Assembly: GCA_964543655.1 (NCBI GenBank)
Contig: CAZIZE010000055.1
Span: forward strand, 1-37,911
Length of the DNA stretch: 37,911 nt
Reading direction: 5' to 3'
Origin: an uncultured bacterium
GTDB lineage: Bacteria > DYJV01
Shown one piece after another: positions 32,822-35,970 of the stretch (positions are counted from its first letter, which is position 1; every line of letters begins with the position of its first letter). Both the position numbers and the translations under genes were made by a program. Under the pieces are notes generated by a model that was given only the letters and a program-made list of their open reading frames with translations, did no database searches and was not told the DNA's origin.

Positions 32822-32884
32822 ACAAGAAACCTCCTTTTTTTAAATTTTCTATCAAATACCATTTAAATTGTCAAACTTTTACAT

Positions 32885-34009
32885 TTAAGTAAAAAACTCT
32901 GCAAATATGTAATCACTTAGTAGAAATCCCTTTTCTGTTAATGAAAGTTTATTATTTTCAATGGTTATCAAGTTATTCTTTAATAAATTTTCAATCTTTT
33001 TCTTAAATTTATCTCTAAAATCAAAATTAAACTTTTTAAAAAAATCTTCTAAATCTAATCCTTCTTTTTTCCTTAAATTTAGAAAGATATATTCATTTTG
33101 TAAAGTTGTTTTTGAAAGAGATTCTTTATAAGCTACTGGAAATTTATGTTGAGAAACTTTTTCTATATACTCAATTACATTAGATAAATTGCTCCATCTC
33201 TCTATATTATAAAATGAATGTGCACCAGCACCAAAACCCAAGTAATTTACACCTTTCCAGTAGTTGATATTGTGCTTTGAATAATAATCACTTTTACAGT
33301 AATTTGATATTTCATAATGAGTATATCCTGCTTTTTGAAGGTATTTGCTTATAAGCATATACATTTCTGAATAGGTATTCTCATCTACCTCTTTAACTCC
33401 TGTTTCATAAAATTTACTTCCTTTCTCTATTGATAGGCCATAAATTGATATATGAGGAAGATTGTAATTCACTGCTATTGATAAGTCCTGTTCTACTATT
33501 TTTTTATTCTGACCTGGTACAGCAAAGATGAGATCAATGCTTAAATTTTTAAAAATCTTAATTGATTTTTCAATAGCTTCCTTACAATCCTTTTTATTAT
33601 GTGGCCTTTTAAGAAACTTTAAAATTTCATTGTTAAAACTCTGTATACCAATGCTTAATCTATTAATACCAATACTTTTATAAAATTTCAATGCAGTAGT
33701 TGATACTGTTGCTGGGTTTGCTTCTAATGTTATCTCTATACAATTTTCTAATTGAAATTTTTCTAAGATTTTTTCTATATATTTTTTTTCAACAATAGAT
33801 GGTGTGCCACCACCAAAGTAAATAGTTTCTATAGTTGAGTTTTTTATAATATCTGAATATAGTTGAATTTCAAATAGAATAGCTTCGAAGTATTCTTTAA
33901 TAATCTTATGTGAAAAAGATTTTAAAGGATATGAGCAGAATGAGCAATAATTGCACTTTGAAATGCAAAAAGGGATATGAATGTATATCCCTAATTTATT
34001 TTTCCCCAT
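32885..34009 (-). CDS. hemW: Radical SAM heme chaperone HemW
   Basis: YIHIPFC..KC.YC, YFGGGTPS, EANP, YEISNY, HNINYW (HemW HNxxYW motif). Confidence 0.92.
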   Translation of the reverse strand: MGKNKLGIYIHIPFCISKCNYCSFCSYPLKSFSHKIIKEYFEAILFEIQLYSDIIKNSTIETIYFGGGTPSIVEKKYIEKILEKFQLENCIEITLEANPATVSTTALKFYKSIGINRLSIGIQSFNNEILKFLKRPHNKKDCKEAIEKSIKIFKNLSIDLIFAVPGQNKKIVEQDLSIAVNYNLPHISIYGLSIEKGSKFYETGVKEVDENTYSEMYMLISKYLQKAGYTHYEISNYCKSDYYSKHNINYWKGVNYLGFGAGAHSFYNIERWSNLSNVIEYIEKVSQHKFPVAYKESLSKTTLQNEYIFLNLRKKEGLDLEDFFKKFNFDFRDKFKKKIENLLKNNLITIENNKLSLTEKGFLLSDYIFAEFFT

Positions 34010-35757
34010 TATAGTAAGTTTTTCATAGATTCCAATTTCTCAATTACATTATTTAATTTTTCTATCTCTTCATCTATTTTGCCTGCCTGATTCTGTCTTT
34101 TGTATATAGCTTTTTCTACTGCACCTTTTGTTGCATTTATAACTTCTTCCATTTGTCTGTCAAAATCAAAGTTAAACTCTCTGAAAGTATCTTGAATCCC
34201 CTGGAAAATAGACCATCTTAAGTTCTCTATATTTGAATTTAATAACATATCAAGTTTGTCAATGTATCTTTTCAAAAGTTTCTTTTTTAAAATATTTTTA
34301 GGCATAAGGGTATCAACAACGGTGTTTGATATTGCAGTAAGAGTTGTATCCCATCTATTAACAACCCAGTAAGGCTTAATTCGCATTTTTAAACCTTTAT
34401 CACCCTGTAAAGGAATATAAGGAATATCCATAAGCTTCATTGCATTTTTTCTAATAGTCTCTATAACTTCCATTGCTTTATCTTCATGAGCTCCTAAAAT
34501 TTCAGATGCTTTTTTATTAAAATTACGTGAAAATATTCCAAATTCTCTTTCAAAATATGGTGGAATAGATTTTTTTATATATTCATCAACTTTTATTTTT
34601 ATTTCAGCAGGTTCATTTGAATTACAAATTTCAACAATCTCCTTCTGAAAATAGTTAAATGCTTTTTCTTTAAGTTTATCAGCTTCATTGTCAAGGAATT
34701 GCTCAACTCTTTTCATATCTCCTTTTAATATATCACCAACATAGATTTTCTGCTCTTTTGCTTTTTCTATTTCTTGTTCAAGTATTTTAATCTTCTCTTC
34801 TAATTCTTCAAGTGGCGATTGGTACGATTTAATTAATATTTTAAGCTGCATTAAAATATTTTCAATTATATCTTTTGCCTTAATTGAAATTGCCTTTTTT
34901 AATGCCTCTCCTTTCTCTTTTTCCATAAATTCAAGTATATTGTTTTCAAGAAAGGAAATATTGCTTTCTTTTAAAAGAATGTTGTTATCTTTTAACTTAC
35001 CATTAATCGCTTTTTTAGCGGAAATTGGAAATACCTCAATATCATTGGTAAGATTTAGCTCTTTTTTTATTACTTTTTTTAAGAAATTAATACTTGTTTC
35101 AAGCTCATCTTCATCAAGGTAATCTATTTTATTTAAAACAAAAAATATTTTTGGTACACTTGAAAAGATAGACTTTAAAAAATCAAGTTCAACTTCGGTA
35201 ATTGGTGGGTCAGAAGATGTTACAAAAAGTGCTGCATCGCATTGAGGCAAAAAATTGATAGTCATTTCTGTATTATGTTTGTAAGTGGAGCCAATGCCAG
35301 GAGTATCAATAAGTACAAAGCCTTTTTTTAAAAGATCTGATGGATAATGAATCTCAACATGGGATACACCAAGTTTATTTTCTGGATTGCCAGATTCTGT
35401 AACATATTTATCAAGAAAATTTTTTAATTCATCAATATCTCCTTTGAAAATCTCCTCCTTGCTCATTTTAGCAAGGAAACAAACTTTTGCAAAAAGAGAG
35501 GGGTTGTAATATATAAATGTGGGAATAGCTGTAAGAGGCAAAACTGCTGTAGGCATTAATTTGGCACCAAGTAATGAATTAACAAGGGTGCTTTTGCCTC
35601 TTTTAAATTGGCCTAAAACTGCAAGGTGAAAACGTCCTTCTTGTAATCTCTGATTTAACTCAACTAACTTTTCTTTAAATGATTCAAGGTTAAGGTCTTC
35701 TATTGAAGTGATTTCAATTACCTGATTGAGAGTCTCCACAAGGTTGAGCTTTCCCAT
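34009..35757 (-). CDS. Bacterial dynamin-like GTPase
   Basis: G1 GQFKRGKS, G2 PLT, G3 DTPG, G4 NKID, long helical stalk. ATG 35757 with GGGAGA SD; TAATG overlap with hemW. Confidence 0.9.
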   Translation of the reverse strand: MGKLNLVETLNQVIEITSIEDLNLESFKEKLVELNQRLQEGRFHLAVLGQFKRGKSTLVNSLLGAKLMPTAVLPLTAIPTFIYYNPSLFAKVCFLAKMSKEEIFKGDIDELKNFLDKYVTESGNPENKLGVSHVEIHYPSDLLKKGFVLIDTPGIGSTYKHNTEMTINFLPQCDAALFVTSSDPPITEVELDFLKSIFSSVPKIFFVLNKIDYLDEDELETSINFLKKVIKKELNLTNDIEVFPISAKKAINGKLKDNNILLKESNISFLENNILEFMEKEKGEALKKAISIKAKDIIENILMQLKILIKSYQSPLEELEEKIKILEQEIEKAKEQKIYVGDILKGDMKRVEQFLDNEADKLKEKAFNYFQKEIVEICNSNEPAEIKIKVDEYIKKSIPPYFEREFGIFSRNFNKKASEILGAHEDKAMEVIETIRKNAMKLMDIPYIPLQGDKGLKMRIKPYWVVNRWDTTLTAISNTVVDTLMPKNILKKKLLKRYIDKLDMLLNSNIENLRWSIFQGIQDTFREFNFDFDRQMEEVINATKGAVEKAIYKRQNQAGKIDEEIEKLNNVIEKLESMKNLL

Positions 35758-35782
35758 GTTATTTCTCCCTTTAACTTTTTTC

Positions 35783-35834
35783 AAGTAGGAGTCATTAGCC
35801 AGATAGGCAGTTTTCGGGAGACTCCATTCCCATG
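35783..35834 (-). ncRNA. Fluoride riboswitch (crcB motif)
   Basis: Minus strand GGGAATGGAGTCTCCCGAAAACTGCCTATCTGGCTAATGACTCCTAC matches the consensus GGnnATGGnGTnnnCC...AACYGC...GCTRATGRCTYCTRC. P1 GGGA/UCCC, hairpin GCC/GGC, pseudoknot GGAGUC/GACUCC. Confidence 0.93.
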
Positions 35835-35970
35835 TTTTTTGTGAAATAAATACAGTTTGATATAAAATAAAAATATTAAAATTGCAAGAAAATATTAAAT
35901 AATGCTTTTGCATAATAAATAGTTCCAATACAATCTTTCTCTTTGCCTGCATCAGAATTAGAATGACTTT

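Follow-up and report, generated by a model that had tools for sequence, protein, structure and literature searches.

The stretch of DNA analysed here, hereafter the window, comprises 37,911 nucleotides (nt) of contig CAZIZE010000055.1 (assembly GCA_964543655.1) from an uncultured bacterium (GTDB lineage Bacteria; DYJV01), and carries on its minus strand a fluoride riboswitch of the crcB motif, a gene for a dynamin-like GTPase of 582 amino acids (aa), and hemW, encoding a radical S-adenosylmethionine (SAM) haem chaperone (Table 1). The ligand of the crcB-motif riboswitch is fluoride. The pairing of this riboswitch with the GTPase recurs in both prokaryotic domains, and we are nearly certain that the GTPase family is a real, conserved member of the fluoride regulon.

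Table 1. Features of the riboswitch–GTPase–hemW locus (window coordinates)
Feature	Position	Strand	Basis
Candidate sigma-70 promoter: TTGCAA 35887-35882, 17-nt spacer, TATATC 35864-35859	35859..35887	-	by eye; weak
Fluoride riboswitch aptamer (crcB motif), complete	35779..35840	-	RF01734, 56.6 bits
3' pseudoknot strand ACUCCU of the aptamer, anti-Shine-Dalgarno-like	35787..35792	-	CUCCU pairs with GGGAG in the minimum free energy fold
Shine-Dalgarno AGGGAG, 7 nt before ATG	35765..35770	-	sequence and folding
Dynamin-like GTPase, BDLP/IniA/mitofusin class, 582 aa + stop	34009..35757	-	translation; Dynamin_N 93.1 bits
G domain, about residues 40-255; G1 GQFKRGKST, G3 DTPG, G4 NKID	34993..35640	-	alignment to BDLP; model
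Non-helical segment, residues 443-479, conserved PYWV..W; candidate lipid-interacting loop or paddle	34321..34431	-	AlphaFold2 model and alignment
hemW (374 aa), haem chaperone of the radical-SAM type; TAATG overlap with the GTPase stop	32885..34009	-	TIGR00539, 292.4 bits

A scan of the whole window with the Rfam covariance models returned a single match above its gathering score, the Fluoride family (RF01734) at 35840..35779 on the minus strand (56.6 bits against a gathering score of 34; E value 2.9e-13), which covers model positions 1-64 of 64 and was recovered unchanged when the contigs of the organism's own genome were searched. In the cmscan alignment, both short helices are canonical and the conserved segments forming the pseudoknot, GAUGGNGU and AUGACUCCUAC, are present. 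The aptamer occupies the 5' leader position, on the sense strand relative to the GTPase gene: its conserved core ends with CUCCUAC (35785), followed on the minus strand by AGGGAG (35770-35765) and by the ATG at 35757, which lies 21 nt from the end of the Rfam model and 27 nt from the end of the conserved core. The original prediction, made from the sequence before any database search, had described a complete crcB-motif aptamer about 27 nt before the dynamin ATG, a dynamin stop overlapping hemW, and no CrcB or CLC gene in the window. The covariance model and the gene coordinates bear out all three points; with 35834 as its right-hand limit, the aptamer loses its first six model positions, and the start is corrected here to 35840. 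From the candidate promoter upstream, transcription would begin some 12 nt ahead of the aptamer. A consensus scan missed this promoter because its -10 hexamer lacks the final T, and a comparable TTTTATATCA stretch lies in front of the aptamer of the congener (locus L005), which is weak evidence for a promoter.

The open reading frame (ORF) list contains a longer frame of 647 aa (34009..35952), with its ATG at 35952; since that frame would begin upstream of the aptamer, the start was taken as 35757. The resulting 582-aa protein matches Dynamin_N (PF00350) at 93.1 bits against a cut-off of 27, and its G1, G3, and G4 motifs align to those of the bacterial dynamin-like protein BDLP. Sequence searches of the PDB with the GTPase placed Nostoc BDLP first (2j68, E 3.7e-24), followed by IniA (6j72, E 7.5e-18), the Campylobacter dynamin-like protein (DLP) pair, and mitofusins, and a search with the family profile matched BDLP at E 2.2e-36. 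In the AlphaFold2 model (predicted local distance difference test, pLDDT, 83.7; predicted template modelling score, pTM, 0.77), the G domain (about residues 40-255) is followed by long helices (267-442), an ill-defined coil (443-479), and further helices (480-581); the helical neck and trunk bundles fold back on the G domain, as in the BDLP/mitofusin class. Foldseek comparison over the full length gave IniA (E 1.1e-21; template modelling, TM, scores 0.64/0.66) and closed BDLP (TMq 0.65). The coil sits between helices 383-442 and 480-556 (pLDDT 57-65); P462, W464, and V465 are invariant or nearly so in the family, the median number of aromatic residues in the segment is 6, and no hydrophobic window of transmembrane grade was found in it (highest Kyte-Doolittle mean 1.25). 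By analogy with BDLP and IniA, we infer that this segment forms the tip of the trunk and binds the membrane.

Mean column identity across 58 aligned members of the family is 53%, and the positions invariant in all of them include GQ.KRGKS, DTPG.GST, HNT, Q-C-D, D-P-P, the N, K, and D of NKID, W464, N509, and W515. Against the DynA equivalog model (NCBIfam NF052648) the protein, a single 582-aa unit, scores 75.8 bits with a cut-off of 1600. A profile search of 1.84 billion cluster representatives gave 4557 matches at E ≤1e-30, other bacterial dynamins included, and the best 150 matches, mostly full length at about 600 aa, all had E ≤1e-150. The GTPase belongs to a large, well-delimited family of proteins of about 600 aa of the BDLP/IniA class.

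The association with the riboswitch was surveyed at three scales. Within the same order, four of the five other genomes carry a GTPase orthologue (88, 62, 58, and 46% identity), and in three of these four, down to the 46% identity level, a riboswitch lies immediately upstream (59.6, 50.3, and 46.9 bits); no fluoride riboswitch was detected upstream of the 58%-identity orthologue at E ≤0.1. For the wide survey, a pattern scan of GTDB species genomes with tblastn confirmation identified at least 566 relatives, the best 80 loci of which were used, and the 79 genomes holding these loci were scanned whole with RF01734, the matches being mapped to gene starts by contig coordinates. The 80 loci come from at least 15 phyla, including Thermodesulfobacteriota, Spirochaetota (Leptospira too), Acidobacteriota, Planctomycetota, Chloroflexota, Bacillota, Atribacterota, Nitrospirota, and Calditrichota, and also Methanomicrobia. 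Upstream of the GTPase, a riboswitch on the same strand is present at no more than 300 nt in 60 of the 80 loci and at 301-5000 nt in a further 13, where the intervening sequence holds genes, such as those for a 156-246-aa protein devoid of annotation in L051, L070, and L095. When called start codons are used instead of tblastn starts, one locus moves from the more distant into the nearer class. A separate run with a strict motif regular expression found a same-strand aptamer upstream in 43 loci, at positions agreeing with the mapping where the two were compared.

An even sample of 151 genomes was drawn from Thermodesulfobacteriota, with GTPase presence scored at E ≤1e-40, so that distant members matched only over the N-terminal half are included. 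The riboswitch occurs in 58 of these genomes and the GTPase in 21, all of them among the 58; no member of the family was found in the 93 sampled genomes devoid of the riboswitch. With distances determined by hand, the upstream riboswitch is no more than 300 nt away in 17 of the 21 genomes, and two others have it at 302 and 489 nt. Of the 77 riboswitch matches in the sample, 19, about a quarter, precede a gene of this GTPase family. As a control, three tandem, distantly related dynamin-like genes in genome G017 (E 2e-30 to 6e-17) were inspected and no fluoride riboswitch was found with them at E ≤0.1; in this single genome, therefore, the link belongs to the family described here and not to bacterial dynamins generally. 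A quick maximum-likelihood tree of 81 proteins, from which one truncated gene of 432 aa was left out, placed the four archaeal genes, all with a riboswitch, in a clade beside Leptospirales (support 98) inside the bacterial diversity, which suggests that riboswitch and GTPase gene move together.

Together, the order-level, 80-locus, and 151-genome surveys led us to reject a relic or a chance adjacency. The proposal that the locus is a fluoride-stress module thus gains strong support from the breadth of the pairing (60/80 loci; 19/21 genomes), and a riboswitch upstream of the gene proves to be the common arrangement in this dynamin clade. The spirochaete genome G056 (Spirochaetota) encodes two GTPase paralogues (L047 and L050), each with a riboswitch of its own (57.9 and 58.7 bits), and has two more riboswitches elsewhere, and at L100 2857-4155 (Chloroflexia) the GTPase frame stops after 432 aa behind an aptamer of 25.3 bits and may be a decaying copy.

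The window corresponds to contig C55 of a genome of 2.26 Mb in 102 contigs, in which CrcB is encoded only on contig C96 and two CLC genes lie on C98 and C42. This genome carries two fluoride riboswitches, the one in the window and a second at C87:41859-41924 (-) (locus L002, 1501-1566; 36.5 bits), upstream of a NuoH/HyfC-like membrane subunit (PF00146). Another membrane protein is encoded after the PF00146 subunit, and an MscS channel gene lies just upstream. The crcB gene itself (C96:17905-18246 (-), locus L003) has no fluoride riboswitch, abuts an upstream CN-hydrolase gene, and is followed by a DUF190 gene, and the exporter of this organism seems not to be regulated by RNA; the targets of both switches in this organism are therefore not the exporter. 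With the GTPase as query, the genome yielded no second dynamin-like gene.

The TAA stop of the GTPase (34011-34009) shares one base with the ATG of hemW (34009). The identity of HemW is clear from its TIGR00539 score (292.4 bits against a cut-off of 205.4), the presence of both Radical_SAM and HemN_C, and the radical-SAM motif C15-x3-C19-x2-C22, and it is the only HemW of the genome above the TIGR00539 cut-off. The TAATG overlap had suggested a dynamin-hemW operon, which does not hold up as a conserved unit: hemW lies downstream of the GTPase in two of the five orthologous loci of the order, those of the window's genome and its congener; of the remaining loci, L008 ends 123 nt past the GTPase stop and two have different genes downstream. 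Among the neighbour clusters of the 80 loci, the 25 largest likewise include no radical-SAM gene (representatives of ten of them were annotated), and we accordingly rejected hemW as a conserved partner or recurrent neighbour. It looks like a passenger. Between hemW and the M18 aminopeptidase gene lie 63 nt (window 32822-32884, -) whose minus strand contains TTGACA and no terminator-like site, and the aminopeptidase gene downstream of hemW may have its own promoter.

How the riboswitch would act on the GTPase was approached by comparing unconstrained folds with folds in which the helix and pseudoknot strands were constrained as in the bound state. In the unconstrained minimum free energy fold of the window leader, the CUCCU of the aptamer's 3' strand is paired with the GGGAG of the Shine-Dalgarno sequence (SD), whose unpaired probability is 0.00-0.03 in the free leader versus 0.36-0.79 with the aptamer constrained; in nine of 12 short-leader homologues, too, the free fold pairs the SD with part of the aptamer. 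A search for a terminator between the aptamer and the ATG of the window found none, and a transcription-terminator platform was rejected there, the 21-nt gap leaving no room for one. With 21 nt between aptamer and ATG and no fitting terminator, control is most likely translational, an SD-occlusion platform is plausible on the folding models, and we consider translational ON control in the window probable. We infer the ON polarity from the known behaviour of the riboswitch family and from the SD-aptamer pairing; fluoride riboswitches are ON switches, with the switching logic set out in PMC2864571. Many homologues with leaders of 70-150 nt have a U-run immediately before the ATG, which suggests terminator-type platforms in those cases.

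The genes around the GTPase were compared by clustering all ORFs of the 80 loci and annotating cluster representatives with Pfam. Enolase is the commonest neighbour (18 loci), followed by Na+/H+ exchangers (Na_H_Exchanger; 13), major facilitator superfamily (MFS) transporters (11), MutS domain V proteins (MutS_V; 7), HEAT-repeat proteins (6), AMP-binding enzymes (5), and DUF6062 proteins (4). In L040 (2-2805), two tandem proteins with only MutS domain V are encoded between riboswitch and GTPase, and the pair and the GTPase apparently form one operon. The riboswitch-GTPase gap is about 3.2 kb in L040, L062, and L068 (Atribacterota and one related genome), with MutS_V genes confirmed in L040 only. 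Enolase and Na+/H+ antiporters are known fluoride-riboswitch associations. In PMC2864571, mutS and ion-transport genes are reported as associations of the crcB motif, mutS among the first ones. Since its neighbours match these known associations, the GTPase is placed within the recognised fluoride regulon.

Other recurrent features of these neighbourhoods deserve separate mention. Related-looking, soluble Cys-rich proteins sharing a C..HAW-like motif, some with no Pfam match and others assigned to DUF6062, are encoded directly downstream of the GTPase in seven further loci; they occur in L037 (4777-5535), L049 (4713-5444), L061 (4702-5691), L065 (4753-5514), L076, and L101, with further ones in L036 (4790-5515) and L064 (5982-7367; DUF6062), and may represent an uncharacterised partner or a further regulon member. 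In several genomes, five or six riboswitches cluster on one contig around the GTPase gene, forming fluoride islands (G072:C10, 6 matches, 10-34 kb; G102:C71, 6; G118:C41, 5, labelled Methanoregula). Members of the family often share islands of this kind with enolase, Na+/H+ exchanger, MFS transporter, and MutS-like ATPase genes. Divergent riboswitches arranged back to back, 50-130 nt apart, control genes on both strands at G057:C277 2105-2169(-)/2294-2356(+), G118:C41 7380-7442(-)/7526-7588(+), G096:C1 104595-104654(-)/104709-104769(+), and G240:C13 12370-12448(-)/12539-12611(+).

We propose the following course of events. Rising cytoplasmic fluoride would cause the aptamer (35840..35779) to fold and lock its 3' pseudoknot strand, ACUCCU, inside, where it would no longer pair with the AGGGAG ribosome-binding site; the freed site would permit translation of the 582-aa GTPase, together with the overlapping hemW only in the window's genus. 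The GTPase would then use its aromatic tip loop to bind the cytoplasmic membrane on the inner side; in the manner of the stress-induced bacterial dynamins IniA and DynA, its GTP-driven assembly would seal or remodel membrane that fluoride stress has deprived of integrity or ion-tightness. It would be a dedicated effector and not a topped-up housekeeping enzyme, because the family is confined to riboswitch-bearing genomes in the 151-genome sample, lies nearly always behind the switch, and supplies the only dynamin-like gene found in the genome. A fold class that acts on membranes and the stress roles of IniA and DynA lead from there to a fluoride-induced membrane-maintenance GTPase; the closest structural relative, IniA, is named "isoniazid inducible". 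That the riboswitch is the ON switch of a dedicated fluoride-response, membrane-maintenance GTPase is, as a combined statement, the reading towards which we lean slightly, and the membrane-maintenance role, which is argued by analogy, is tentatively suggested.

Several observations weigh against this reading. The functional analogy to IniA and DynA is drawn from general background and PDB entry titles, the proposed membrane binding is likewise analogical, with the candidate loop being the least confident part of the model (pLDDT 57-65), and no established mechanism of membrane damage by fluoride is known to us. The recurrent neighbours belong to glycolysis and ion homeostasis, not to the envelope. 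On the RNA side, a search of RNA sequencing runs listed none that contains the locus. In the folding models, with more sequence context the mean accessibility of the ribosome-binding site barely changes, from 0.30 to 0.33, with a rise of more than 0.1 in two of 13 short leaders, and when the whole aptamer is blocked, the rise exceeds 0.2 in four of 12 short leaders and the window's own SD stays at 0.17. The predicted gain in SD accessibility is dependent on the thermodynamic model used, and the general thermodynamic SD-release test, which shows no clear trend, is counted neither for nor against. Three of the 60 near riboswitch matches score below the gathering score (30.9, 28.6, and 25.3 bits), two of the 21 sampled GTPase genomes have no nearby riboswitch (it is on another contig), and seven of the 80 loci have none, L082 among these not being assessable as its contig ends at the gene start. 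In the tree, the seven riboswitch-less loci are scattered singletons, requiring seven changes for seven rows, a pattern that may reflect repeated loss or missed detection. Because related genomes do not count as independent observations, no p-value is attached to these counts.

One alternative is compensation, in which the GTPase is itself inhibited by fluoride or metal fluoride and the riboswitch raises the dose of a housekeeping activity, as is assumed for enolase. Enolase is a classic fluoride-inhibited enzyme, and metal fluorides with GDP trap GTPases; enolase is also the most frequent neighbour (18/80 loci) and in some loci, for example L041 and L043, appears to share the GTPase leader, with no riboswitch match between the two genes. 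A housekeeping GTPase should, however, also occur in genomes devoid of the switch, whereas the family was found in 0 of 93 riboswitch-less versus 21 of 58 riboswitch-bearing genomes, and the only dynamin-like gene found in the window's genome is preceded by an ON switch that, in its free fold, makes the SD inaccessible, which points to low expression of the GTPase when fluoride is absent. The upregulation of a fluoride-poisoned GTPase, one of the two explanations put forward in the original prediction, is thus a poor fit to the phyletic pattern, and we consider it unlikely. Fluoride might instead act twice, inducing the gene and then, as MgF3- or AlFx with GDP, locking the G domains in a transition-state dimer, so that the protein, triggered by fluoride, would tether or patch membranes independently of hydrolysis or would sense fluoride at the protein level. 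GDP-AlFx stabilises G-domain dimers in the dynamin family. Nothing in the data speaks directly for such a double action, which is compatible with the intact G motifs and with the confinement of the family to riboswitch-bearing genomes, and the mitofusin entry 5gom, a "transition-like state", is among the fold matches; but the nucleotide pocket showed no family-specific change, BDLP has the same KRGKST P-loop, and formation of metal fluorides in the cell at relevant levels is uncertain. Both the double action and the tether, patch, or sensor function that forms part of it strike us as distinctly unlikely. Were this true, the toxin itself would trigger assembly of a membrane tether or patch, with no GTP turnover needed.

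A role away from the membrane, in which the GTPase and MutS-domain-V ATPases work on nucleic acids, ribosomes, or complexes stalled by fluoride, is brought to mind by L040, with its two tandem MutS_V-cluster genes between riboswitch and GTPase, by the occurrence of that cluster in seven loci, and by the place of mutS-like genes among the first crcB-motif associations reported (PMC2864571). Seven loci are, however, a small share of the 80, the full-length fold matches are membrane-acting dynamins, and the conserved aromatic loop looks like a lipid-binding element, which makes such a role quite improbable. It is far less credible still that hemW is the real target and the GTPase incidental, or that the riboswitch is a relic left after loss of an exporter gene. 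The overlap of hemW with the GTPase stop, its status as the only HemW of the genome above the cut-off, and a crcB gene devoid of a riboswitch would fit these ideas; the restriction of downstream hemW to two of five order loci (L008 ending 123 nt past the stop), its absence as a recurrent neighbour, the adjacency of riboswitch and GTPase across phyla and both prokaryotic domains, and the intact window aptamer (56.6 bits) run counter to them, and the survey already contradicts both versions.

A fluoride-induced, membrane-maintaining GTPase would be of interest for several reasons. The cellular roles of bacterial dynamin-like proteins are largely open, and most have no known inducing signal; here, a GTPase family distributed across many anaerobic bacterial phyla and some methanogens comes labelled by a fluoride-sensing RNA, which offers a defined chemical inducer for studying a bacterial dynamin. 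The pairing also hints that fluoride toxicity has a component countered by a membrane-remodelling GTPase, beyond export and enzyme replacement. In the Thermodesulfobacteriota sample the GTPase is a major regulon member (19/77 riboswitch matches). Some carrier records bear the labels of cultivable taxa (Moorella relatives, Leptospira biflexa, Desulfonema, and Desulfomonile), so experiments look feasible.

A literature search for work joining fluoride, riboswitch, and dynamin returned none, and the association may have been listed earlier in supplementary gene tables (e.g., Baker et al. 2012); nothing relevant was found on fluoride riboswitches with GTPases or on bacterial dynamins with fluoride stress among publications represented mostly by their titles and abstracts. 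Neither the riboswitch class nor the protein superfamily is new; what we did not find in print is the apparent placement, as seen in sequence, of a conserved, cross-domain family of dynamin-like GTPases under a fluoride riboswitch. The locus resembles fluoride-riboswitch systems that control crcB/Fluc, CLC-F, enolase, or other genes in having a full-length sense aptamer in the 5' leader, with an SD close behind that can pair with its 3' strand, and in the enolase, Na+/H+ exchanger, and mutS-like genes that neighbour the family at its other loci, whereas it differs in that the controlled gene is a dynamin-like GTPase and the crcB of the window's genome has no riboswitch.

Among dynamins, mycobacterial IniA (PDB 6j72/6j73), which is isoniazid-inducible and has a membrane-fission and repair role, is the best full-length fold match and, like the window GTPase, is a single polypeptide of about 600 aa that has no transmembrane helix and whose expression is tied to chemical stress; identity in the structural alignment is, however, 17-18%, fluoride is here sensed by RNA, and no IniB/IniC-type partners were seen near the GTPase. 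Nostoc punctiforme BDLP (2j68/2j69/2w6d) is the best sequence match and shares the KRGKST P-loop and the closed G-domain/neck/trunk architecture, but the sequence match covers about the first 330 residues, the GTPase is roughly 100 aa shorter, and the candidate counterpart of the BDLP paddle, a loop, carries a distinct conserved motif, PYWV..W. Bacillus subtilis DynA and Campylobacter DLP1/DLP2 are proposed to tether or repair membranes under envelope stress, and the chains of 5owv are significant matches in both sequence and fold. In the window's genome the GTPase is encoded by a single gene, with no second dynamin-like gene found, whereas DynA consists of two fused dynamin-like units and DLP1/DLP2 form a pair.

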